Positions 88-24,723 of a stretch of DNA of 64,000 nucleotides are shown here, one piece after another. The notes beneath the pieces are model-generated. The model worked only from the letters and a program-made list of their open reading frames with translations, was not told the origin of the DNA and did no database searches. Numbering within the stretch: position 1 is the stretch's first letter; each line of letters opens with the position of its first letter. Source of the DNA: a virus (taxonomy: Duplodnaviria; Caudoviricetes); IMG/VR virus record IMGVR_UViG_3300029288_000106, positions 32,001-96,000 of that record; one strand, written 5' to 3'. The position numbers and the translations under genes were made by a program.

Positions 88-2628
88 TTATTTTAATTTT
101 TGCATCTCATAATAATTTTCTCCCCACTCCCACGATATGCTAAAATTAAGACCTCTTTGCCAATCAAATACTTTAGTCTCGAAAATTTTCTTAACATTCA
201 TCATCACAGTCTCTAACTCATCTAAATGTGTATCAAATAATACACTATCGTGTGTTTCAGATCGAATAATGGTATTAAATCTTTCTCTTGTTAAAAATTC
301 ATTTATTCTACGAACAGCATCAAAAACAAAATGAAAAGCTGGACCTTGAACTGGAGTATTATAAATTTGCTCTATACTTAATGGAGCATACCGCCTAAAT
401 CCTGTAACGCATGTTATGAATCCATATTGTTGGTATTCGGCTAAAGTTCTATTCTGCCATTCTTTAACTTCAGCATACTCCTCCCAGAACAACTTCTGAA
501 CTGCTTCAATATGATCTCTGTTCATACCTATAGCCCCAGCTATTGAAGCAGGAACGGCTCCATATAAAGAAGCAAAAACAAACATATTTTTTGCATTAAA
601 TCTCTCTAAACCAGTAATTTCTGATTCTGGTTTTTTATATAATCTTGCTGCCCATCTTCTATGTACATCAACTCCTGCAAGCAGCTGTCGAATAAGAGTT
701 CTATCTCCCGAAACCATTGCAACAGTTGTTACTTCAATACCATTTACATCTGATTCAAGAAAAATATGGTTGGGACGAGGAATAATAATTTTTCTAAATT
801 TCATTAACTCTTCATCATGTTTAAACATATTCTGAACATTTGGATCAGTTGTACTTGAACGAAATGTCTCTGCAATATTCATAGTAAAACAAGGATGAAG
901 GTAGCCATCTTCTTTCAAACATCCTCTATACTCTTTAACTCGCTTTTTAAAACTCACAACTTTCCTATATTCTTTCACAAGTTGTGCTGATGACAAAACA
1001 AGAGGATCTTTATCTTTTCTTAATATGTCTTCTATTACTTCAGCATCGAGACTATAATTTCCTTCTTTTGTAACTCTTTGTATTCTTGTTCTAAGTATAT
1101 TGTAAAATAAATTTGGTAAATCTACATTAGATTGAATATTAATATCATGCTCATACTTTTCTTTAAATTTTAATCCTATTTCACTCTGAACCAATTCTTT
1201 CTGATATCTCACTATATCTGCATTTGCTTCTTCTTCAAAAGTATCAAGTTGTTTTCTATCAACTGGAAATCCTCGTTCTGTCATATCCACAAACGTCGAA
1301 AGGCCTTTATGTAAAAATTCATAAAAATCTCTCTGACACTTATTCTCTGGTCTATCAAAATACTCTTTAATAACCAAATATAACATATACTGATATCGAG
1401 CATCAAGACAGTTATATGGGTATAATCGCTCAATTGGCTCTTGATCCATCTTCTTAATGTTTACATCTCCTTTGTAAACATCTCCGGTCATCTGAAATAC
1501 CTGATACTCTAATGATGTAGTTCCAGATTTGCAAAATCTAACATGAGATGCAACCATCGTGTCCATAATAATATTATTAACTCTCGTGCCAAATTTAGCT
1601 CTTGACCAAGTCTCTTCCATATTAAAATTCTGTACAACTTTAGGAGTAGAACTTGCAAGAAATGCTTTAAATGCTTGCACTACATAAGCTTGACAAGGAA
1701 GAGACCAAGTAGGATTATCAAGCCATATACAATACCCTTCATCTATACTAGACGAAAATCCTATTGATAAAGGTCTTGCCCCTACCTCGTAAGGACTTAA
1801 TCGATTTGCTTCATAATCAAAAGACACAACAAAATTAACATCAGTTATTGATTTCAAAAACTCAATAGCATCATCTGGATTATCTATTAGATAATTACCT
1901 GATCTATCTAGTGGTTTGGGCAATGGTTTATTGAGATATTCTTTGAGTATTGATGCTATATCCCTCTTGAACACAGGATCAACCGAAGGATCATATAATG
2001 TACTTGCTGGATGATATGTTAATCCTACCCACGATTGATAATTCTGATAAGGATAAACATAACCATGAATTCTGCTAACAGCCAGTAAATCAGCTCTTTT
2101 GCCTTTAAAAACATCGTTTTTCATCACAGCTTTCATTGCTACATCACCTAAGCAAATAATAAGCTGTGGTTTAACTTCTTCAATATCTTTCATCAAATTA
2201 GCAAAACAACACTTAATTTGATCATTCGTAGGAGTTGCATTTCGAGGAGGATGACAACGTATAACGTTTGTTCTAACACAATCTCTATCAATATTAATTC
2301 CAGATTGTTGTAAAACAGAAGATAAGTACTGACCAGATTCTCCTACAAAAGGTTTACCTTCCCCATCTTCTGTTCGGCCTGGAGCTTCGCCTATTAATAA
2401 AATTTTCTTTTGTCCTTGACCATACCTCTGCATCTTCGGAGAATGACACCTTTCCGAAAGACCACAAGTTGAACAATTATAAACTTCAGGAGATGGAGTT
2501 GATGCTTTTCTACTTCGGCCTGTGCTTGATTTTGAACTACTTCTTACAGTAGATTTATTCTTCTCTTCTTGTCTCTTCTGATACAGAAGTTCGTTCTCAG
2601 TATAGAAAAAAGCTGGTTGACTACTCAT
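88..2628 (-). CDS. polA: Family A DNA polymerase with N-terminal family-4 uracil-DNA glycosylase and 3'-5' exonuclease domains
   Basis: UDG4 motifs CxxC, GEAPG, RCHPP, TYHPA; exonuclease DYE; Pol A motifs ESDVNGIE, RFNAKNMFVFASLYG, NTPVQG, THDS. Confidence 0.93.
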   Translation of the reverse strand: MSSQPAFFYTENELLYQKRQEEKNKSTVRSSSKSSTGRSRKASTPSPEVYNCSTCGLSERCHSPKMQRYGQGQKKILLIGEAPGRTEDGEGKPFVGESGQYLSSVLQQSGINIDRDCVRTNVIRCHPPRNATPTNDQIKCCFANLMKDIEEVKPQLIICLGDVAMKAVMKNDVFKGKRADLLAVSRIHGYVYPYQNYQSWVGLTYHPASTLYDPSVDPVFKRDIASILKEYLNKPLPKPLDRSGNYLIDNPDDAIEFLKSITDVNFVVSFDYEANRLSPYEVGARPLSIGFSSSIDEGYCIWLDNPTWSLPCQAYVVQAFKAFLASSTPKVVQNFNMEETWSRAKFGTRVNNIIMDTMVASHVRFCKSGTTSLEYQVFQMTGDVYKGDVNIKKMDQEPIERLYPYNCLDARYQYMLYLVIKEYFDRPENKCQRDFYEFLHKGLSTFVDMTERGFPVDRKQLDTFEEEANADIVRYQKELVQSEIGLKFKEKYEHDINIQSNVDLPNLFYNILRTRIQRVTKEGNYSLDAEVIEDILRKDKDPLVLSSAQLVKEYRKVVSFKKRVKEYRGCLKEDGYLHPCFTMNIAETFRSSTTDPNVQNMFKHDEELMKFRKIIIPRPNHIFLESDVNGIEVTTVAMVSGDRTLIRQLLAGVDVHRRWAARLYKKPESEITGLERFNAKNMFVFASLYGAVPASIAGAIGMNRDHIEAVQKLFWEEYAEVKEWQNRTLAEYQQYGFITCVTGFRRYAPLSIEQIYNTPVQGPAFHFVFDAVRRINEFLTRERFNTIIRSETHDSVLFDTHLDELETVMMNVKKIFETKVFDWQRGLNFSISWEWGENYYEMQKLK

Positions 2629-3659
2629 AATTTAGGCTGCTTTTCTATCACAACATAAATAAGCTTCTCTGTGACAAATAATATAGCTCCTTTTGTTGTG
2701 TACGTAAGAGAATTACAAATAGGTGCAATTTCTTTTAAGAATAACGGATTAACAGAAAATTCAATTCTCTGCTTTACTGGATTAGTTAATTCCACTTCCT
2801 CTTCTAACTTTCCTAAATCTTTATCAACTGATGTAAATATACATTTTGTGCCTTCAACTACTACTCGTATCTCTTTATCAAGAGTTTGAATGTTTTTAAG
2901 GAGAGTGATATGCCTATCTAAAATCTCATTAAGAGAAGCAGGAAAATCTAAATTATCTACAATTGTTTCTTGTGGTGGAATAAATTGAAGAAGATTTTTA
3001 TACTCTCCTCTTAAAAGAACAGAAGAAAGAATTGTCCCATCATTCATCTCTATCACAATCTGATTATCTTCAATTAAACCGATTTTCATAATTTCTTTTT
3101 TGAAAGACAAAATTGTCTGAACAAGTTTAATTGGAAGAGTACAAGGATTAGCAAGAAGATTTTCTTTAGCAGTAAAATTAGCTATTCTATATCTATCTGT
3201 ACTAAACATATCTTTACCGTCTACTCTTACTCCACATAGTGGCCCTACTGAACTATCTTTTGAAACACTATATTGACAGAATTGAAAGCCTTCATATAAT
3301 TCAAGTGAAACTTCTTGCATATTCTCACAAACCAGCAGCTGAGGAATTGATGATAATTGAGCAAGAGTAAATGTACCTACAATCTTTTTGTCTTTTATTA
3401 AAACTCTTGTATCCTCCAGTTCTAATTCAATTGTATCTGAAGAAAGACTCTCGAGTAAAAACAAGAAAGAAAGTCCTGGAATAGCAAAAGTAGCTTGAAG
3501 ATCTGGACAAGATGCTTTGATTATCATTGTTCCATCGGTTGCTACAACTCTATCATTTTGAAAAATAAAACATTGAAATGTTGGAACAAGTACGTTAATT
3601 CCTAATGCTGGCTTTACTCTATTAAGTGCTTTTACTAACTCCTTACGATCTACTATCAT
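2625..3659 (-). CDS. dnaN: DnaN/beta-type sliding clamp
   Basis: 344 aa; VVATDG and FSTDRYR beta-clamp motifs; 4-nt overlap with polymerase start. Confidence 0.8.
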   Translation of the reverse strand: MIVDRKELVKALNRVKPALGINVLVPTFQCFIFQNDRVVATDGTMIIKASCPDLQATFAIPGLSFLFLLESLSSDTIELELEDTRVLIKDKKIVGTFTLAQLSSIPQLLVCENMQEVSLELYEGFQFCQYSVSKDSSVGPLCGVRVDGKDMFSTDRYRIANFTAKENLLANPCTLPIKLVQTILSFKKEIMKIGLIEDNQIVIEMNDGTILSSVLLRGEYKNLLQFIPPQETIVDNLDFPASLNEILDRHITLLKNIQTLDKEIRVVVEGTKCIFTSVDKDLGKLEEEVELTNPVKQRIEFSVNPLFLKEIAPICNSLTYTTKGAILFVTEKLIYVVIEKQPKL

Positions 3660-3887: not shown

Positions 3888-4241
3888 TTAGGCATTTTCT
3901 ATATTCTTAACTTCAATAGATTTAGGAACAATAAAAACATCAAAACAAGCTTCTTGTAAACAAAGTATTGAAATTAATGCTGCTCTATGAATTTCATTGG
4001 GAATAACACGTAATGCTATATTAGAATTGTTAGAAAAAGCTCTGTTCAAATGCTCTTGAACTGTTTTAGCAATATTAGTTCTCAATTCAAAACTATCTTT
4101 CTCAAACAAATAAGATTGCAAAATAGGCTTTATAATACTTGAAATCTCAAGGTCAACACCGTCTTCTCTAATTATCAGTATATCTGCTCTTGCTTTGAAT
4201 CTTTCAATCCTATCTTCAACACCTTCTCTAACACTTTCCAT
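3888..4241 (-). CDS. Hypothetical protein
   Basis: 117-aa ORF with AGGAG SD. Confidence 0.7.
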   Translation of the reverse strand: MESVREGVEDRIERFKARADILIIREDGVDLEISSIIKPILQSYLFEKDSFELRTNIAKTVQEHLNRAFSNNSNIALRVIPNEIHRAALISILCLQEACFDVFIVPKSIEVKNIENA

Positions 4242-4256
4242 TCATTTCTCCTTGCA

Positions 4257-5342
4257 TCAAAATAAAGTTTTAATGGCTCTAAACTCTTCGATTGACGGAG
4301 CAATGCCTTTTGCTAATAACTGAGAAAAATACATTACATTAACTTTCTGTCGCTCGTGATGAGATGTTTCTAAAGCCAGTAAATCGATATCTAATCCTTT
4401 CAAGTAGCTTTCTATCTTTTCTTTCTCTTCTTCAGTATAAGCTGTTGTATAATGAGGATTAGTAACATTAGGTCTAATCTTTGCTTCTTCTGATACAACA
4501 ACAGCTAATGGAGGTAAAGTAAAATCAAACTCTCCTTTAATATTACATTTAGGTACAACGACATTACCAAAAGCAGCACTCTTTAACCACGACGTACTAT
4601 CTACTGAATAAAATGGAAATCGCTGTATCATATCAACAGATGTTACAGCAAAACCATGTACTTTAAGTTGAGGATTAACTTCAGCAATTATTTGAAAACA
4701 CTGATACGCAAATGTAAGAAAATCAGCTTTCCTCAAACCAGTAGCCATTCCACCTAAACCAATATACTCATATTCTTCAGCATATTTTTTCAACCACTTA
4801 AAATCTTCAAGAAAATGAAATACTGGAAGAGGTTTTAAACCATTTGACTCCATATATTTCTGATTTTCCCATGATTTTTCAGCATTGTAAATAATATCAA
4901 GATTAACATAAGCATGAAGCTGATCTTTGTATTTATGTACAAATGCAATGTACTCATCAAGGTACTTCCTAACTTCTGTATTATCAGCAAGGGAAAAATC
5001 TGCCATCCCCTGAACCATGCTTCTCTGTTTTTCTGCAAAAAATATTTGTGCATTTGAATCCAGCCTTTCTCTAAACTCCTCTTCTGAAAATGTTCTTATT
5101 CCTTCCACCTTTTCTGAATTAACTGTTGAATTGCTATTAATCAAACCTGTCATTGCATTAAGCAACGAATGTGCTCCTGAGTCCATAAATATACTTAATT
5201 TAGAGTTGCTGTCTAAAAGCTTTGCTACATCTTTTCCTTTCCAAAACGTTTCAAGCGAAGCAACTTCCCCTGACAACAATTTATCAGTCCAAAATCCTTC
5301 TTTATTAGATGTAGCAAGATTTGCCATATAAATATATTTCAT
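4257..5342 (-). CDS. dpdA: DpdA/TGT-like 7-deazaguanine DNA transglycosylase
   Basis: TGT-barrel motifs MDSGAHS, NLDII, PVFH, IGLGG, VHGFA, SVDSTSW; operon with queE; folE and queC also present. Confidence 0.75.
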   Translation of the reverse strand: MKYIYMANLATSNKEGFWTDKLLSGEVASLETFWKGKDVAKLLDSNSKLSIFMDSGAHSLLNAMTGLINSNSTVNSEKVEGIRTFSEEEFRERLDSNAQIFFAEKQRSMVQGMADFSLADNTEVRKYLDEYIAFVHKYKDQLHAYVNLDIIYNAEKSWENQKYMESNGLKPLPVFHFLEDFKWLKKYAEEYEYIGLGGMATGLRKADFLTFAYQCFQIIAEVNPQLKVHGFAVTSVDMIQRFPFYSVDSTSWLKSAAFGNVVVPKCNIKGEFDFTLPPLAVVVSEEAKIRPNVTNPHYTTAYTEEEKEKIESYLKGLDIDLLALETSHHERQKVNVMYFSQLLAKGIAPSIEEFRAIKTLF

Positions 5343-6067
5343 TTCACTAATTGCTCCTGTCGAGAATCATAAATTAAAATAGCTTGTTTTGGTATATTGT
5401 TATTTTTTAGCATACTATCAAGATTTTCTAAATAGACTAATATTTCTGGCCACCAAGTATCAAGATCTAAAGCTTGAGCCAGATCACAAAGCTTTCTAAG
5501 CAAAGGCAAATCCCAATCTCTATATACGTTATAATCAAAAGAAGTTTCTTTAGCTTTACAACCAAACAACCAATTCCTTCCATATTGCCTTTTAGTTAAT
5601 CGAGCTATGCCTTGCTTATTGCCATCAATATGCATATGAGGCAAGGCACAATGCAAAGGCTTAATAGAATGAATCTGGCATAAATTATCTTTTAAAAACC
5701 GACATCTTTTACTATCATTTTGATAAGCTTTAATCTCGTAACTCTTTTCATTTATCTTAACCACAAAATTATGGCATTTTTTTATATCAAGAACAGTAAG
5801 GTCATCAACATAATTATCAAAACAAACAGCTTTACTTGCTAAATACACCAACGAAACAGGCCTTTTTGAACAACACTCTCCACAAGTACTACACTTAAAA
5901 TTACGAAAGAACTTTTCAGAAATTTCAACCTTTTTTGGAGGACTAACTTTTAACTTATAATTCTTTGCAAAAGTAATTGTAATATCATGTTTGGTTAGTC
6001 GATAAATATATTGAAACATATAAACAACTGAGCCAAGCAAATTCTCATCATATTTCTCAAGAATCAT
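5339..6067 (-). CDS. YkgJ-family CxxCxxCC metal/Fe-S cluster protein
   Basis: CSTCGECC and CRFL-x4-CQIHSIKPLHC. Confidence 0.75.
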   Translation of the reverse strand: MILEKYDENLLGSVVYMFQYIYRLTKHDITITFAKNYKLKVSPPKKVEISEKFFRNFKCSTCGECCSKRPVSLVYLASKAVCFDNYVDDLTVLDIKKCHNFVVKINEKSYEIKAYQNDSKRCRFLKDNLCQIHSIKPLHCALPHMHIDGNKQGIARLTKRQYGRNWLFGCKAKETSFDYNVYRDWDLPLLRKLCDLAQALDLDTWWPEILVYLENLDSMLKNNNIPKQAILIYDSRQEQLVK

Positions 6068-6978
6068 CAGAAAAATCCTTTTTGTTCTTCTTTTACTTTA
6101 ATTTGTGAATACATATAACTCTTCACTTCATATGATGGATAATGTGTTTTAAATAAAGACAAATTTTTGTTCAATTGAGCACCACAATTAAATTTCTTCA
6201 TGCCTCTCTGATACAAATCTCTCAGTACATAAATATCAAGCCATTCCATCATATTAGATGGAAGTTCCCAGTACTTACCAAAATTTGCTAAATCATAAGC
6301 TATGTCTTTTTGTATACCCACAACACGAACTGCAATTAACTGCTTAGCCATACAAAAACAATAAACAAAATAACCTACATGTTGAATTGCATAATCATAA
6401 CAACGAATATATCGATTAGTTGGAAACATTATTTTAAATGTGTTAGGATCAGCAAGTTTATGCTCTACCCACTCATCATGTAGAAGTTTTACTGCATTAC
6501 TATCAACTTCGCTTGACATGAATGATCTTGTTTTTACTTTATATCTTTCTAACTGTTTAAACGGATATATTAATCGTTGATATCTTTTTTTCTTATTTGG
6601 ATACGAATTAGGATTTAAAACTTTCTCAAGATCGTATCCAATTTCAATAAAAGAGTGAGCACCAGACAAAAAAACTTCAGGGTAGAGAGAATAAATAGGC
6701 CCTAATTTTATCAAGTAATCAATAAGTTTTCTTTGTATTTTATCATTCTCTGGATTGAAACAGAAACTTTTAAATCGGCCCTGAACAGAAGGAAGAAGAA
6801 GTATATTTCCTTCAAAAACAATCAAGCCATACATATTTCTTATTTCATCTAAATTGAAGTATGTATTCAACACTGGAAGAGAAAAATTATGTACTCCCTT
6901 ATTATCAAGATCCTCTATAGAAGTTAATTTCTTCTTATATTGATGAAGATCGCTGAGTATTGTTTGTATTTTGCTCAA
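6067..6978 (-). CDS. DUF2156/aminoacyl-PG-synthase-C-like (Fem/GNAT fold) putative aminoacyl-tRNA-dependent transferase
   Basis: Ordered pattern GYDLEKV..KKKRYQRL..HDEWVEHK..QLIAVRV..GMKKFNCG..NLSLFKTHYP resembles DUF2156; no TM segments; TTG start. Confidence 0.55.
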   Translation of the reverse strand: MSKIQTILSDLHQYKKKLTSIEDLDNKGVHNFSLPVLNTYFNLDEIRNMYGLIVFEGNILLLPSVQGRFKSFCFNPENDKIQRKLIDYLIKLGPIYSLYPEVFLSGAHSFIEIGYDLEKVLNPNSYPNKKKRYQRLIYPFKQLERYKVKTRSFMSSEVDSNAVKLLHDEWVEHKLADPNTFKIMFPTNRYIRCYDYAIQHVGYFVYCFCMAKQLIAVRVVGIQKDIAYDLANFGKYWELPSNMMEWLDIYVLRDLYQRGMKKFNCGAQLNKNLSLFKTHYPSYEVKSYMYSQIKVKEEQKGFF

Positions 6979-6986
6979 TTAAAAAC

Positions 6987-7172
6987 TCATACAATATTAT
7001 ATTTTTCTACTATGTCACAAATCCACTTAACTCTACCTGGTGTCATTTCATATTCTGGATGATCTACCATATCAATTATAAATTTCTTCTCTTTCTCAGT
7101 TAATCGAGTAGCTAGTAAATCAATAGCTTTTAATAATCTTTTTGCTTCTTCAATATCTATACTATCGCTCAT
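6987..7172 (-). CDS. Small hypothetical protein (61 aa)
   Basis: ATG at 7172 overlapping queE end; longer track start unlikely. Confidence 0.6.
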   Translation of the reverse strand: MSDSIDIEEAKRLLKAIDLLATRLTEKEKKFIIDMVDHPEYEMTPGRVKWICDIVEKYNIV

Positions 7173-7851
7173 GTGTCGCTCCAGGCCATAATACTTTATG
7201 TATTTGTAGAGAATAACTAACATCAGGTATCATATGAGCTTCATCTATCATCATTTCAGCTAATGCCTTTGGCCAGCCAGTAAAAATATCTGAATATTTG
7301 ATAGCAGGACTAAATACTTTCCTGGCCTTCCATGTATCTCTATTAGCTAAAACCAACCCCCGAGCTATGTAAAAATCATTAATTCCATCAATCACAAATT
7401 TAATAACATCACAATCCCGAAGTTGAAAAAAAGTCATAGCTCTCATTTGATCTTCCATTTTTGATGATGGAAGTTTATAATCAACAATCAAACGAAGATT
7501 TTCTTTAGCTAGCATATGATTAAATAAATCGTGTGAAACACTTAAACTGCCATTTGTCTCGATCGATACTCTATGTTTTCTATCAAGAAGACCAAGTACA
7601 AGTTGGGTAGTTTCTTCTTGAATTAAAGGTTCTCCACCAGTTATTGTGACTTTTGGTAAGATATTGAGTTTTAATATATCTTCAACAGATTTTAACTCTT
7701 TTGCCTTCTGGTCTTGAGCATATTTTGTATCACAAAATTCACACCTTAAGTTACATCCTCTTAAACGAATAAATGTACAGAGCTCGCCTGCTCCATTAAA
7801 TCCATTAACTTCACCATCGATACTATCAAAAATAGCCTGAATATTTAACAT
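7162..7851 (-). CDS. queE: 7-carboxy-7-deazaguanine synthase (radical SAM)
   Basis: FDSIDGE, FIRLRGCNLRCEFCDT, TGGEP, ETNG, LQIHK. Confidence 0.93.
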   Translation of the reverse strand: MLNIQAIFDSIDGEVNGFNGAGELCTFIRLRGCNLRCEFCDTKYAQDQKAKELKSVEDILKLNILPKVTITGGEPLIQEETTQLVLGLLDRKHRVSIETNGSLSVSHDLFNHMLAKENLRLIVDYKLPSSKMEDQMRAMTFFQLRDCDVIKFVIDGINDFYIARGLVLANRDTWKARKVFSPAIKYSDIFTGWPKALAEMMIDEAHMIPDVSYSLQIHKVLWPGATHER

Positions 7852-14193: not shown

Positions 14194-14977
14194 AATAATT
14201 CAAAGTCTATTAACTGCCAGATCTGATAATGATATATACATCGCTGAATGTTGTGTCAATGAATGTCGATTAGACGGCTGGGCTATACGAAAGTCTTATT
14301 CTAATCCACTCACAATAGGTTATGAAATCAAAATAAGTAAATCAGATTTTTTGACAGATAAAAAATGGACTGGCTATTTGTCATATTGTAATGAATTGTA
14401 CTTTGTTTGTCCGTCTCATCTTATACAGCCAAATGAAGTGGGAGAACAAGTAGGATTGATGTGGGTAGCATCAACTGGAACAAGAATTTATACAAAGAAA
14501 AAAGCTACCTACAGAATTGTAGAAGATAAGTATATTAATCAAATTTTGAGATCAGTACTTTTTAATAGATGTGTAGTTAGAGAAAATTATTGGGGTAATG
14601 CACAGCCAGACAAATCAACGTTTTGGAAAAGATGGTTGCAGAAAAAAGACGAAGATAAAGAATTAGGCTGGAATGTTAGTGAAAAAGTAAGACAATTAGT
14701 TGAAGAGCGTGTTGATAAAGTGAAAAGGGAAAATAGTAGCTTAAGAAGAAAAATTGAAGAATTTAAACGCCTTGAAGAATTACTAATAAAACTTAATTTT
14801 AATCCTGAATATTTTGATTTGAATGAAGTTCAAAATCGTATTAAAGGAGCAATACCCAAAGATTTACTTTGGACAATTGATCAAGTTATAGATAGACTTG
14901 ATCGAACAAAGAAAAAACTATTACTTTTAGAAAGGACAAAAGCAGATGGACAAAACACAGATGACCCAAGGAATTGA
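14183..14977 (+). CDS. MmcB-like PD-(D/E)XK protein with coiled-coil C-terminus
   Basis: LDGWA..GYEIKISKSDF..KW..YL.YCNELYFVCP. Confidence 0.75.
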   Translation: MNAEIIQSLLTARSDNDIYIAECCVNECRLDGWAIRKSYSNPLTIGYEIKISKSDFLTDKKWTGYLSYCNELYFVCPSHLIQPNEVGEQVGLMWVASTGTRIYTKKKATYRIVEDKYINQILRSVLFNRCVVRENYWGNAQPDKSTFWKRWLQKKDEDKELGWNVSEKVRQLVEERVDKVKRENSSLRRKIEEFKRLEELLIKLNFNPEYFDLNEVQNRIKGAIPKDLLWTIDQVIDRLDRTKKKLLLLERTKADGQNTDDPRN

Positions 14978-15497
14978 GATGTTTCTTAAAGGCGCAGGAA
15001 TTGATTTAACAAATGAACATTTCCAGAAAACTCCAGCTAGAGTTACTAAAGCTTTTGCTGAGACATTTTTATCTGGATACGAAATGAATATTCAATCAAT
15101 CCTCGAAACAACATTTACTGAAAATAAATATGATCAGATGGTAGTAATAAGTAATATACCATTCTGTAGTATGTGTGCACACCATTTGCTTCCTTTCTAT
15201 GGTCATGCGAAGATCGGATATTTACCAGATGGTAAAGTCTGTGGCTTATCAAAATTAGCTAGAGCATTAGAAGTACACTCGCGAAGATTACAAATTCAAG
15301 AAAAGCTTACCCAAGATCTTGCTGAAGATCTAATGAAGTATCTCAAACCTAAAGGCGTTGGAATTATTTTAGAAGCTGTTCATTTGTGCATGACAGAGCG
15401 AGGAGTGATGAAATCAGGAAGTTTAACAAAAACATCTTGTTTACTTGGTGCATTTAGAGACGATGCATCAACACGACAAGAATTCTTGTCTTTCTAA
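14946..15497 (+). CDS. folE: GTP cyclohydrolase I
   Basis: TPARV, SMCAHHLLPF, GLSKLAR, RLQIQE, HLCMTERGV. Confidence 0.96.
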   Translation: MDKTQMTQGIEMFLKGAGIDLTNEHFQKTPARVTKAFAETFLSGYEMNIQSILETTFTENKYDQMVVISNIPFCSMCAHHLLPFYGHAKIGYLPDGKVCGLSKLARALEVHSRRLQIQEKLTQDLAEDLMKYLKPKGVGIILEAVHLCMTERGVMKSGSLTKTSCLLGAFRDDASTRQEFLSF

Positions 15498-23081: not shown

Positions 23082-23843
23082 ATGGGCAGTAGTGTAGTAG
23101 TAGTTTATTCAGGCGGATTAGATAGCACAGTATTACTAAATCATGCTGTAAAAACAATTGATCGAGTGTTAGCAATAAACTTTAATTACGGATCAAAACA
23201 TAATAATAAAGAACGAGATGCAGCTAAAGCTGTTTGTGAAGAACTTTCAGTTCCACTTTTTCTTGTTAATCTTCCAACTGATATAATTTGGATTGATCCG
23301 ACCTATCATTCTGAACGACTTGGGACTTTACTTAAGTCAAATCTAATGGCAAAAGGAAACGAAATACCAGATGGTCATTATGCTGAAGATGTGATGAAAA
23401 AAACAGTTGTCCCATTTAGAAATGGTATTATGCTATCAATAGCAGCTGGATTTGCTGAAAGTCATGATTGTAAATTTTTATGGTTAGCTAGCCATTCGGG
23501 CGATCATCATATATACTGTGATTGTAGACCAGAATTTACAAATGCTATGGCTTCTGCTGTACATTTTGGTACATATACTAATATTGAATTGAGAGCTCCG
23601 TTCAGCAATAAAAATAAAGCAGAAATTGTGAAACAGGGAGTTGAAGAAAATGCTCCAATGCATTTAACTTGGAGTTGTTATAAAGGTGGAAATAGACCGT
23701 GTCTAACTTGTGGCACATGCATTGAAAGAACCGAAGCATTCAAATTAGCTGGAATAAAAGATCCAACTCTATCCGATGCTGAATGGAAAATAGCATTAAC
23801 TCATCTGGAAAAAACAAACAATTTGATGAAAGAACAATCATGA
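23082..23843 (+). CDS. queC: 7-cyano-7-deazaguanine (preQ0) synthase
   Basis: SGGLDS, YGSKH, VPFRN, DCRPEF, SCY..PCLTCGTC. Confidence 0.95.
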   Translation: MGSSVVVVYSGGLDSTVLLNHAVKTIDRVLAINFNYGSKHNNKERDAAKAVCEELSVPLFLVNLPTDIIWIDPTYHSERLGTLLKSNLMAKGNEIPDGHYAEDVMKKTVVPFRNGIMLSIAAGFAESHDCKFLWLASHSGDHHIYCDCRPEFTNAMASAVHFGTYTNIELRAPFSNKNKAEIVKQGVEENAPMHLTWSCYKGGNRPCLTCGTCIERTEAFKLAGIKDPTLSDAEWKIALTHLEKTNNLMKEQS

Positions 23844-24652: not shown

Positions 24653-24723
24653 GGGGCTGTAGTTTAACTGGCAAAACGCTTTATTACGGTAAAGAATTAT
24701 AGGTTCAAATCCTATCGGCTCCA
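24653..24723 (+). tRNA. Atypical tRNA: Ala-type acceptor stem, 6-nt anticodon loop (UUACGG), no encoded CCA
   Basis: GGGGCTG/CGGCTCC-A; D-stem GTTT/AAAC with GG; anticodon stem CTTTA/TAAAG; T-arm ATAGG-TTCAAAT-CCTAT. Confidence 0.8.

Follow-up and report, generated by a model that had tools for sequence, protein, structure and literature searches.

A predicted aminoacyl-tRNA-dependent transferase encoded in a phage operon for 7-deazaguanine DNA modification

The operon and the preQ1 pathway

The window analyzed here is a stretch of 64,000 nucleotides from a Caudoviricetes phage (positions 32,001 to 96,000 of the 105,263-bp IMG/VR record IMGVR_UViG_3300029288_000106). An operon on its minus strand, running from 7851 to 88, encodes QueE, a 61-aa ORF, a 303-aa protein that we named X303, a CxxCxxCC protein, DpdA, a 117-aa ORF, a sliding clamp, and a UDG-PolA fusion (Table 1). 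The junctions are overlaps of 1-11 nt or gaps of 8-15 nt, with the sole exception of 228 nt ahead of the clamp, and no terminator-like site was found on the minus strand between the operon genes. A previous sequence-only reading had described this gene order and tight packing, and had placed folE and queC elsewhere in the window; all of these genes were found where it had put them. The small ORF overlaps the stop of queE and would encode 78 aa if an upstream ATG at 7223 were used (6987-7223, minus strand). It has no match in family searches and no homolog in 40 related loci, and is not conserved beside X303 elsewhere; the 117-aa ORF likewise has neither a family match nor a homolog in the related loci.

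Table 1. Features of the window discussed in the text, with the evidence for each assignment.
Feature	Position	Strand	Evidence
Family A DNA polymerase fused to a UDG domain; final operon gene	88..2628	-	PF00476 8.2e-49; PF03167 9.9e-25
Sliding clamp (beta-like processivity factor)	2625..3659	-	phrog_947 9.7e-37
117-aa ORF between DpdA and clamp	3888..4241	-	ORF only
DpdA, DpdA1-like, 361 aa	4257..5342	-	phrog_887 4.8e-43
DpdM homolog (CxxxCxxCC / YkgJ family), 242 aa	5339..6067	-	PF03692 2.9e-6, 28.3 bits vs cut-off 23
X303, predicted aminoacyl-tRNA-dependent transferase; soluble tandem GNAT resembling DUF2156/MprF-C	6067..6978	-	fold, profile, context
Small ORF, 61 aa	6987..7172	-	ATG at 7172 preceded by GGAG, likely start
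QueE (7-carboxy-7-deazaguanine synthase, radical SAM), first operon gene	7162..7851	-	PF04055 2.2e-12; phrog_2076 2.5e-32; TIGR03963 8.1e-46
FolE (GTP cyclohydrolase I), which starts the preQ0 pathway	14946..15497	+	PF01227 4.8e-64
QueC (preQ0 synthase)	23082..23843	+	PF06508 2.6e-54
Only tRNA of the 105-kb record	24653..24723	+	Rfam tRNA 54.6 bits; ARAGORN 'tRNA-???'

QueF (1.5e-22) and QueD (5.1e-31) are encoded in the part of the record that precedes the window, 7-10 kb from its start, so that together with FolE, QueE, and QueC the whole preQ1 pathway is present. The 361-aa protein is a DpdA by its match to the TGT/DpdA family and by the co-encoded deazaguanine pathway; it has ~32% identity to annotated phage DpdA/TGT proteins, is matched by 238 phage records, and aligns with DpdA1 of phage phiSM at 29% identity (E 1e-17). 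The phage thus has every gene for replacing guanine in its DNA by the amine-bearing base preQ1. Given the established functions of these families, preQ1 would be made by FolE, QueD, QueE, QueC, and QueF, and the DpdA1-like transglycosylase would swap it for guanine in the phage DNA.

The CxxCxxCC protein, which is translationally coupled to both X303 and DpdA, had been proposed to carry out a further step on the inserted base. It can be identified as a homolog of DpdM, the validated dPreQ1 N-methyltransferase (PMC10516641), and is itself predicted to transfer a methyl group. BLASTP gave an end-to-end alignment (residues 24-241 against 7-214; 26% identity, E 4e-10) with gp53 of phiSM, which we took as the DpdM CEPG_00054 of PMC10516641 from cluster position and family; the cysteine motif CxxxCxxCC is aligned between the two proteins, and both match PF03692. 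A DpdM homolog directly follows X303 in eight other loci. The enzyme would N-methylate the 7-aminomethyl group of preQ1.

Fold, family, and distribution of X303

The AF2 model of X303 (pLDDT 93.4, pTM 0.90) is a compact, soluble globular tandem GNAT with no membrane segment, which bears out two earlier suggestions, namely that the protein follows the DUF2156/Fem pattern and that it lacks a membrane domain. By VIA-align, the model resembles the DUF2156 structure 2hqy (Z 18.3 over 261 residues), MprF and L-PGS (Z 15.6 and 15.5, within an MprF/aaPGS range of 15.3-15.6 and with ~250 residues aligned each), the aminoacyl-tRNA-dependent Sbb17 (Z 14.8), FemX (Z 13.3), and FemA (Z 12.4), while Foldseek matched A-PGS at 7.6e-11. 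The single X303 sequence (P0001) gave no match in Pfam (E 0.1), NCBIfam, or PDB sequences, and the top match of its profile among PDB sequences, L-PGS 4v36, was weak (E 0.2). At the level of the family, PF09924 was matched by 6 of 74 members (best 5e-6), the clusters nearest to X303 in the ESM Atlas are of PF09924 (0.97), and hhalign of the family profile against seven genuine PF09924 domains gave 95.6% probability (E 1.2e-8, 134 columns); no member matched PF02388 (FemABX) at E 0.01. Since the single sequence lies below Pfam detection and the family profile is significant, X303 is assigned by sequence and model as a distant DUF2156/MprF-C-type tandem GNAT and PF09924 member, visible only at profile and fold level. 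It was rejected as an MprF proper, as it has no N-terminal membrane/flippase domain and its operon serves DNA modification rather than membrane functions.

Two sequence features connect the family to aminoacyl-tRNA transferases. The helix between the GNAT halves (residues 129-145, KKKRYQRLIYPFKQLER) has K or R at the positions of K130, K131, R132, and R135 in 77-88% of the 74 members, with a mean net charge of +5.1, and it matches the alpha(+) helix that binds tRNA between GNAT I and GNAT II of DUF2156 proteins (PMC7334510). This basic helix could also bind DNA instead of tRNA. In addition, K277 is invariant in the 74 sequences and lies within L-x-x-F-K-x-H-x-P; the pattern L..[FYW]K.[HK].P is present in 54 of the 74 members, and genuine DUF2156 domains (L106, L110, L113) show a matching G-L-x-x-[FY]-K-x-K-x-x-P. 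In FemX, the catalytic residue is Lys305 (PMC12945691).

GNAT is foremost an acyl-CoA fold, and the X303 model also resembles acetyl-CoA-using tandem GNATs (Z 13.2 for VipF, 12.2 for glucosamine N-acetyltransferase, and 11.2 for MshD); furthermore, two of the 74 family members match PF13480 (Acetyltransf_6), and fdPreQ1 is a natural case of a small acyl group on the same nitrogen (PMC10516641). X303 might accordingly be an acyl-CoA-dependent N-acyltransferase that places an acetyl or short acyl group on the preQ1 amine to give N-acetyl-dPreQ1, with tRNA not involved. We consider this unlikely, because the pyrophosphate loop [QR]xxGx[GA], located between beta4 and alpha3, is missing from both halves of X303 (on this ground it was rejected as an acetyl-CoA GNAT) and occurs in the GNAT-II loop of 3 and the GNAT-I loop of 0 of the 74 members, because DUF2156 provides both the nearest structures and the sole significant profile match, because the DUF2156 members for which we found a described function all use aminoacyl-tRNA (PMC7334510), and because the basic helix and the F-K motif of aminoacyl-tRNA transferases are kept in the family. 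N-acetyl-dPreQ1, an analog of the known N-formyl-dPreQ1, would be an undescribed base, as would aminoacyl-dPreQ1.

The X303 family comprises ~135 clusters at 50% identity. Homologs down to 27% identity are found in varied gene orders inside the QueF/QueC/DpdA clusters of many phage contigs, and those in L001, L010, L021, L027, L028, L034, and L104 lie within complete clusters, adjoining QueC or QueF. QueF is present in every complete X303 cluster, which points to the preQ1 amine as the target. Where at least 2 kb of flank is available, 12 of 15 non-redundant loci have deazaguanine genes beside X303; QueC occurs in ~0.5% of phage records (278/50,697), thus the linkage is far above chance. In one 586-aa protein (P0086), identical in two independent assemblies, an X303 domain is fused to a TGT/DpdA-fold domain (TGT 3.2e-7; DpdA 7ui4 2.6e-6; phiST M4SLA5 TM 0.82), and this partner is a DpdA3-type transglycosylase. 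The expectation that the gene would be linked to dpdA in related phages is borne out by these loci and by the fusion. Another target altogether, such as diversion of host aminoacyl-tRNA or acylation of a defense protein or lipid by an enzyme merely co-regulated with early replication genes, would suit L033, L040, and L041, which carry X303 with long flanks in which no deazaguanine gene was found nearby. We regard such a role as very improbable in view of the retention of X303 in deazaguanine clusters across this range of identity and gene order, the linkage far above chance, the covalent fusion to a DpdA3-type domain, and the lack of a membrane domain.

Predicted acceptor, site of action, and donor

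Our preferred reading, to which we assign a probability of roughly 0.55, is that X303 attaches an amino acid to the amine of preQ1, probably within DNA, with aminoacyl-tRNA as the predicted donor. We infer the donor, the amino acid, and the product from fold and context: X303 would take the aminoacyl group from aminoacyl-tRNA and form an amide with the preQ1 amine, yielding aminoacyl-dPreQ1, and the phage DNA probably bears an amino-acid-decorated base. The DpdM homolog and X303 would then be two tailoring enzymes coupled to DpdA and directed at the same 7-aminomethyl group, the nitrogen of which they would contest. Aminoacyl-dPreQ1 would add to the protection of the DNA against restriction enzymes or defenses that sense deazaguanines.

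The C-terminal tails bear on the site of action. X303 ends in the clamp-motif-like ...GFF and DpdA in the similar ...KTLF, and hydrophobic tails were found in 14 of 26 X303 homologs, 7 of 7 DpdA proteins, and 2 of 6 DpdM homologs, compared with 0 of 45 FolE, QueD, QueE, QueC, and QueF proteins of the same loci; the tail motif was defined after the tails had been viewed, and about half of the X303 homologs do not carry it. A clamp of the phrog_947 family also follows DpdA in L010, L021, L027, L028, and L034, with a 346-aa gene in that place in L104. Prediction of the complex between the clamp and the X303 tail scored 0.47 (best control, 0.01), with contact agreement of at least 75% and partner pLDDT of at least 58 across runs, and weakly supports the clamp as a place where the C-terminal tails of X303 and DpdA might dock. 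Among 78 solved complexes, 51 pass the score mark, and among 108 mismatched pairs, 2 do; passes at or below 0.60, the range of this score, include just 5 of the 78 solved complexes yet all 4 passing mismatches (of 180), and the pass may reflect likeness because clamp-peptide complexes have already been solved. Because tails are common to X303 and DpdA and absent from the base-synthesis enzymes, X303 probably acts at the DNA level, on preQ1 already inserted, and would be held at the replisome via its ...GFF tail.

Alternatively, X303 could aminoacylate free preQ1 in the cytoplasm, and DpdA would then insert the finished aminoacyl-preQ1. X303 lies between the free-base enzymes QueF and QueC in L001, L104, and L021, the DpdA3 fusion would suit channeling of a base already modified, DpdA enzymes tolerate different 7-substituents (PMC10516641), and for the family the named acceptors are either lipids or small molecules (PMC7334510, PMC12945691). 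We hold this order of events to be improbable, given that the X303 tail is shared with DpdA and DpdM and with none of the base-synthesis enzymes, that the 7-substituent sits in the major groove and is accessible on DNA, that DpdM is itself proposed to work on DNA (PMC10516641), and that the pocket of a DpdA may be too small for a bulky aminoacyl base.

For the reading of X303 as an aminoacyl-tRNA-dependent enzyme, the single tRNA gene of the record offers a candidate donor. It has G3:U70 and A73 (alanine identity), and its anticodon loop is either a 6-nt loop (UUACGG) or a UACG tetraloop, with no usable anticodon. It was rejected as a tRNA-Ala proper, since this would have a 7-nt loop with an alanine anticodon, and by its sequence it is predicted to be a non-decoding tRNA with alanine acceptor identity. 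The gene was not conserved in related loci or IMG/VR. It may serve as a dedicated donor of alanine, or it may be a tRNA-Ala that has decayed; in the former case, the donor in this phage may be alanine on the phage's own anticodon-less tRNA. As a speculative extension, many uncultured phages could replace guanine by aminoacyl-dPreQ1, made on DNA from charged tRNA by a clamp-tethered DUF2156-type enzyme working with DpdA, the donor here being the anticodon-less tRNA charged by host AlaRS. If true, tRNA-dependent DNA modification would gain a second case, the first on a deazapurine and the first with a non-decoding donor tRNA encoded by the virus.

Comparison with known systems

In line with the earlier statement that no aminoacyl-7-deazaguanine was known in DNA, our literature search found no such report. 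The principle is not unprecedented, since Mom of phage Mu moves glycine from tRNA to DNA, and aminoacyl-tRNA-dependent DNA hypermodification has thereby been shown (PMC13219725). Like the role proposed for X303, Mom is a phage protein of the GNAT superfamily that uses a charged tRNA (Gly-tRNA) and, after replication, hypermodifies double-stranded DNA at a base. The two differ in that Mom has one GNAT domain, works as a dimer on N6 of adenine, and yields a product that rearranges, whereas X303, from the DUF2156 branch, has two GNAT domains in tandem and would target the aliphatic amine of a 7-deazaguanine installed beforehand, forming a stable amide.

The closest relatives by fold are the DUF2156 domain of MprF (PF09924; 4v34, 4v36, 9j8q) and the stand-alone 2hqy, with which X303 shares the tandem GNAT (Z 15-18), the profile homology, the basic helix, the C-terminal F-K motif, and the lack of a CoA loop. 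Unlike MprF, X303 has neither a membrane/flippase domain nor a lipid context and is embedded in a DNA-modification operon; it is predicted to acylate an amine, giving an amide, whereas DUF2156/MprF acts on a lipid hydroxyl and gives an ester. Orf11/Sbb17 use Gly-tRNA to convert a primary amine to an amide (PMC12945691). The streptothricin-type enzymes Orf11/Sbb17/Sba18 (9wqx) and FemX (4ii9) share the X303 fold (Z 14.8 and 13.3), with no sequence similarity detected; in Orf11/Sbb17/FemX, as proposed for X303, the amide arises when a primary amine attacks tRNA at its aminoacyl ester, with a catalytic lysine near the C-terminus. They act on an amino sugar or on a precursor of peptidoglycan, whereas the acceptor of X303 would be a nucleobase, probably in DNA.

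N-formyl-dPreQ1 and N-methyl-dPreQ1 have both been found in phage DNA (PMC10516641): mdPreQ1 is formed by DpdM in the Cellulophaga phage phiSM and in the Vibrio phage VH7D, and fdPreQ1 by DpdN in Flavobacterium phage immuto_2-6A (PMC10516641). A search of phiSM for an X303 homolog found none. Like the DpdM and DpdN systems, the phage studied here has FolE, QueD, QueE, QueC, QueF, and DpdA, and the predicted target nitrogen is the same; its DpdM homolog adjoins DpdA and the clamp, as in the known layout of dPreQ1-tailoring clusters. X303 itself is unrelated to DpdM or to a formyltransferase and would add an aminoacyl group.

The preQ1 operon of the phage record

The IMG/VR record comprises 105,263 bp, of which the window covers bases 32001-96000, and is estimated by CheckV to be 68% complete. 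The minus strand carries eight consecutive genes between 7851 and 88. Their positions and family matches agree with the tight operon proposed in the sequence-only reading, which runs from queE through a small ORF, the gene for a 303-aa protein (hereafter X303), a CxxCxxCC protein and a dpdA-like gene to the clamp and polymerase, with folE and queC elsewhere. Stop and start codons overlap at the QueE/small ORF, X303/CxxCxxCC and CxxCxxCC/DpdA junctions. Since FolE and QueC are located in the window and QueF and QueD just ahead of it, the phage encodes the entire route from GTP to preQ1 together with the enzyme that inserts the base into DNA.

Coordinates of the features discussed (window positions unless another locus is named)
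Feature	Position	Strand	Remark
QueE	7162-7851	-
Small ORF	likely start, ATG at 7172	-
X303	6067-6978	-	303 aa
CxxCxxCC protein	5339-6067	-	PF03692
DpdA-like transglycosylase	4257-5342	-
117-aa ORF	between the DpdA-like gene and the clamp	-
Beta-like sliding clamp	2625-3659	-
UDG/family-A polymerase fusion	88-2628	-
FolE	14946-15497		elsewhere in window
QueC	23082-23843		elsewhere in window
QueF and QueD	7-10 kb ahead of window start		same record
tRNA	24653-24723		~800 nt past queC
P0086 (fusion protein)	L101:8001-9761; L102:5150-6910		586 aa
phrog_19058 domain	L101:8988-9758		also P0153-P0272
GIY-YIG genes	L001:10011-10637; L101:2964-3647, 5788-6447
C33 tRNA genes (Glu and Gly together)	L002:13842-13914; L012:7250-7323; L021:6422-6493; L012:8244-8316

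A site scan found no terminator-like site between operon genes on the minus strand; promoter-like sites were rarer than in shuffled sequences, and the four terminator-like sites lay within about one standard deviation of the shuffle mean (2.5, sd 1.4). The small and 117-aa ORFs gave no family matches and no homologues in 40 related loci and are assigned no role here, and Pfam analysis of the ten ORFs surrounding QueC and the tRNA yielded DUF7831 only. Searches of 50,697 GenBank phage records, which may leave out the window's own or a very near genome, returned nothing for the operon (blastn) or for X303 and the CxxCxxCC protein (tblastn); thus, a cultured relative is lacking. In the terminal polymerase gene, a domain of the uracil-DNA-glycosylase superfamily is fused to a family A polymerase, an architecture that recurs after DpdA and the clamp in the related locus L104.

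The CxxCxxCC protein had been suggested to carry out a further modification step. It belongs to a known tailoring family, being a homologue of DpdM. The latter is the YkgJ/CxxxCxxCC protein adjoining dpdA in Cellulophaga phage phiSM and acts as a dPreQ1 N-methyltransferase (Cui et al., PMC10516641); its homologue in Vibrio phage VH7D has been validated (PMC10516641). In an end-to-end alignment of the window protein with phiSM gp53 (217 aa; 26% identity, E 4e-10) the cysteine motifs coincide, and both proteins pass the Pfam threshold for PF03692. We read gp53 as DpdM CEPG_00054 from its position between QueF and DpdA and from its family, the record and the paper differing in locus tags. The window DpdA is nearest to phiSM DpdA1 (E 1e-17), an enzyme that proved inactive in E. 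coli. Another gene of the phiSM cluster, gp55, was ruled out as an X303 relative (E 1.3).

Fold and family of X303

As a single sequence, X303 has no match in Pfam, PHROGs, NCBIfam or the PDB sequences. An exhaustive search identified 135 cluster representatives at E <=0.001, 60 of them at <=1e-30, and 74 of the 135 were aligned and used for an AlphaFold2 model (pLDDT 93.4, pTM 0.90). The closest structure is the DUF2156 protein 2hqy (Z 18.3, 261 residues, rmsd 4.2), followed by three aminoacyl-tRNA-dependent groups, namely the MprF synthase domains (A-PGS and L-PGS; Z 15.3-15.6), the peptide synthase Sbb17 (Z 14.8) and FemX (Z 13.3); CoA-using tandem GNATs such as VipF and MshD score Z 11-13. 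At the profile level, 6 of 74 family members match PF09924, and the family profile matches seven genuine PF09924 domains drawn from Bacteroidia genomes with 95.6% probability (E 1.2e-8). The top PDB match of the profile, albeit a weak one (E 0.2), is L-PGS, and a language-model search concurs with this kinship. The DUF2156 pattern suspected in the 303-aa protein is therefore upheld by both structure and profile.

Three hallmarks of the DUF2156 enzymes are recognizable. The helix between the two GNAT domains (residues 129-145, KKKRYQRLIYPFKQLER) is basic and conserved, and matches the alpha(+) helix that binds aminoacyl-tRNA in DUF2156 proteins (PMC7334510). An invariant lysine, K277, lies within L-x-x-F-K-x-H-x-P, the counterpart of the motif G-L-x-x-[FY]-K-x-K-x-x-P at the C-terminus of genuine DUF2156 domains. 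The catalytic Lys305 of FemX sits in the corresponding region (PMC12945691), and K277 may occupy its position, as judged from the motif rather than from a superposition. Third, X303 lacks the pyrophosphate loop that would bind CoA, the alternative to a tRNA donor; across the 74 aligned members the loop motif occurs three times in GNAT-II and never in GNAT-I. Taken together, the fold, the profile and the hallmarks identify X303 as a distant, soluble member of the aminoacyl-tRNA-transferase branch of the GNAT superfamily, for which tRNA would be the donor.

Genomic context and an X303-transglycosylase fusion

Related IMG/VR loci were collected with a 10-sequence X303 alignment, and in 40 loci with X303 homologues the ORFs were scored by profiles made from the phage's own pathway proteins. 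A profile search of genome contigs gave a single chance-like match of 20 residues in a Flavobacteriaceae MAG. The suspected linkage of the transferase to dpdA and the deazaguanine genes recurs in related phages: within the sequence available, such genes accompany X303 in 12 of 15 non-redundant clusters (90% identity) whose flanks reach 2 kb or more. For comparison, 278 of 50,697 GenBank phage records contain QueC. Gene order varies, being DpdA/QueF/X303/QueC/QueD/../QueE/FolE in L001, QueE/X303/QueF/QueC/../DpdA in L021 and L027, QueC/FolE/X303/QueF/DpdA in L028, and FolE..QueC/X303/QueF/DpdA/clamp/UDG-PolA in L104, where the X303 homologue has only 27% identity. Every complete cluster contains QueF. 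A DpdM homologue directly follows X303 in the window and in eight further loci and is missing from the remaining loci, so that X303 and DpdM constitute separate modules. In the L002 clade, the conserved neighbours of X303 yielded only DUF932 and an RNA ligase in Pfam and PHROG scans. Two unrelated clusters carry GIY-YIG homing-endonuclease genes between the pathway genes.

The strongest single argument for a role of X303 in the deazaguanine pathway is its fusion to a base-inserting enzyme. Protein P0086, identical in two independent assemblies and surrounded by QueD, QueE, FolE and QueF, combines a complete X303 domain, in which the F-K motif is intact, with a 257-aa domain. The two parts meet exactly: stand-alone members of the second domain's family begin MIKIAHESP, and P0086 reads ...NQIKIAHESP. 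This domain (model pLDDT 91.4) belongs to phrog_19058 (over 3,000 stand-alone homologues) and resembles tRNA-guanine transglycosylases (3.2e-7) and DpdA 7ui4 (2.6e-6) in the PDB. In a comparison with viral models, it matched a phiST protein of 259 aa that is uncharacterised (TM 0.82). DpdA3 was defined in this Cellulophaga phage (PMC10516641), and we infer that the phiST protein is DpdA3 itself. The family phrog_19058, annotated as 'unknown function', comprises proteins of ~265 aa with the TGT/DpdA fold, some of them from Tara samples; it is probably the DpdA3 subfamily, whose abundance is well above what the literature suggests. P0086 was the sole fusion to surface in the exhaustive representative search, and a word-index search revealed no longer (fused) X303 relatives.

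Substrate, donor and comparison with known systems

Many X303 homologues extend past the catalytic core in a K/E-rich stretch ending in ...GFF, ...KLF, ...PIF or GFGL. Similar tails terminate all seven complete DpdA proteins of these loci (the window, where the end is ...KTLF, and L021, L027, L028, L034, L010 and L001; endings TLF, SFF, GFGL, GFGV, GMGVV and GLW) and two of six DpdM homologues, compared with none of the 45 base-synthesis enzymes encoded there (FolE, QueD, QueE, QueC and QueF), counts that overstate the contrast somewhat because the pattern was picked after the tails had been seen. A simpler rule, hydrophobic or aromatic residues at the last two positions, still separates the groups. 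In L034, GFGL ends both DpdA and X303. These peptides resemble clamp-binding motifs, and a clamp gene follows dpdA in the window and in related loci. When the clamp was modelled together with residues 268-303 of X303, the complex scored 0.47 (best control 0.01); 75% or more of the contacts agreed between runs, and the partner had a pLDDT of at least 58. The support is weak: of 78 solved complexes, 51 reached this mark, as did 2 of 108 mismatched pairs, and passes at 0.60 or under account for only 5 of the 78 and for all four mismatches that passed (of 180). The pass may also reflect likeness to clamp-peptide complexes that are already solved. For the choice between free preQ1 and DNA as substrate, these observations moderately favour DNA, on which X303 would work at the replisome in the manner of DpdA. 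The tails also hint at how post-replicative modification enzymes reach the fork.

The sole tRNA of the record, a 54.6-bit match to the Rfam tRNA model, carries the alanine identity set, G3:U70 and A73. Its anticodon loop has six nucleotides (UUACGG), or the arm closes into a UACG tetraloop; the T stem has A49-U65, U50-A64 and A51-U63, and CCA is not encoded. The anticodon is not read by AlaRS, and these features would fit a dedicated alanine donor. In staphylococci, FemXAB are fed by non-proteinogenic tRNA-Gly species that escape EF-Tu (PMC4574755). ARAGORN detected no counterpart in 27 related loci, and the 53 IMG/VR matches to its anticodon arm all lay outside any tRNA context. The donor role is therefore unsupported by conservation, and a decaying tRNA-Ala is an equally plausible reading. 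Ordinary tRNA-Ala genes are present in related phages, where tRNA-Glu genes are recurrent. U33 is near-universal in tRNAs; near X303 clusters in three related loci, tRNA-Glu(UUC) has C33 (loop CCUUCAA), as does one tRNA-Gly(UCC) of L012, and the remaining tRNAs of these arrays all have U33.

We consider X303 very likely to belong to the deazaguanine DNA-modification pathway, and likely to acylate the preQ1 amine. The complete proposal, in which aminoacyl-tRNA would be the donor and DNA the substrate, has in our estimate a probability of about 0.55. X303 would represent a new tailoring enzyme family, and a new base class is predicted, preQ1 bearing an amino acid. Phage DNA is known to contain eight 7-deazaguanine derivatives, and the tailoring enzymes DpdM, DpdN, DpdL and ArcS2 were each discovered via gene-neighbourhood reasoning; X303 adds a further, widespread family (~135 clusters at 50% identity). 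Through its primary amine or carboxylate, the amino acid would offer a new chemical handle in the major groove, and such bases are relevant to restriction and CRISPR evasion and to host sensors of deazaguanine DNA. E. coli produces its own preQ1, so the prediction is directly testable there.

In the literature searched, no paper ties 7-deazaguanine DNA modification to a GNAT, to DUF2156 or to aminoacyl transfer. The nitrogen that X303 is proposed to modify is also the target of DpdM and DpdN (PMC10516641). Mom, the first enzyme shown to modify DNA with a charged tRNA, differs in being a single GNAT with adenine as its target (PMC13219725). If the donor of X303 is aminoacyl-tRNA, genome protection would be linked to translation status, and the Mom principle of tRNA-dependent DNA modification, established only recently, would extend to another enzyme lineage and another base.
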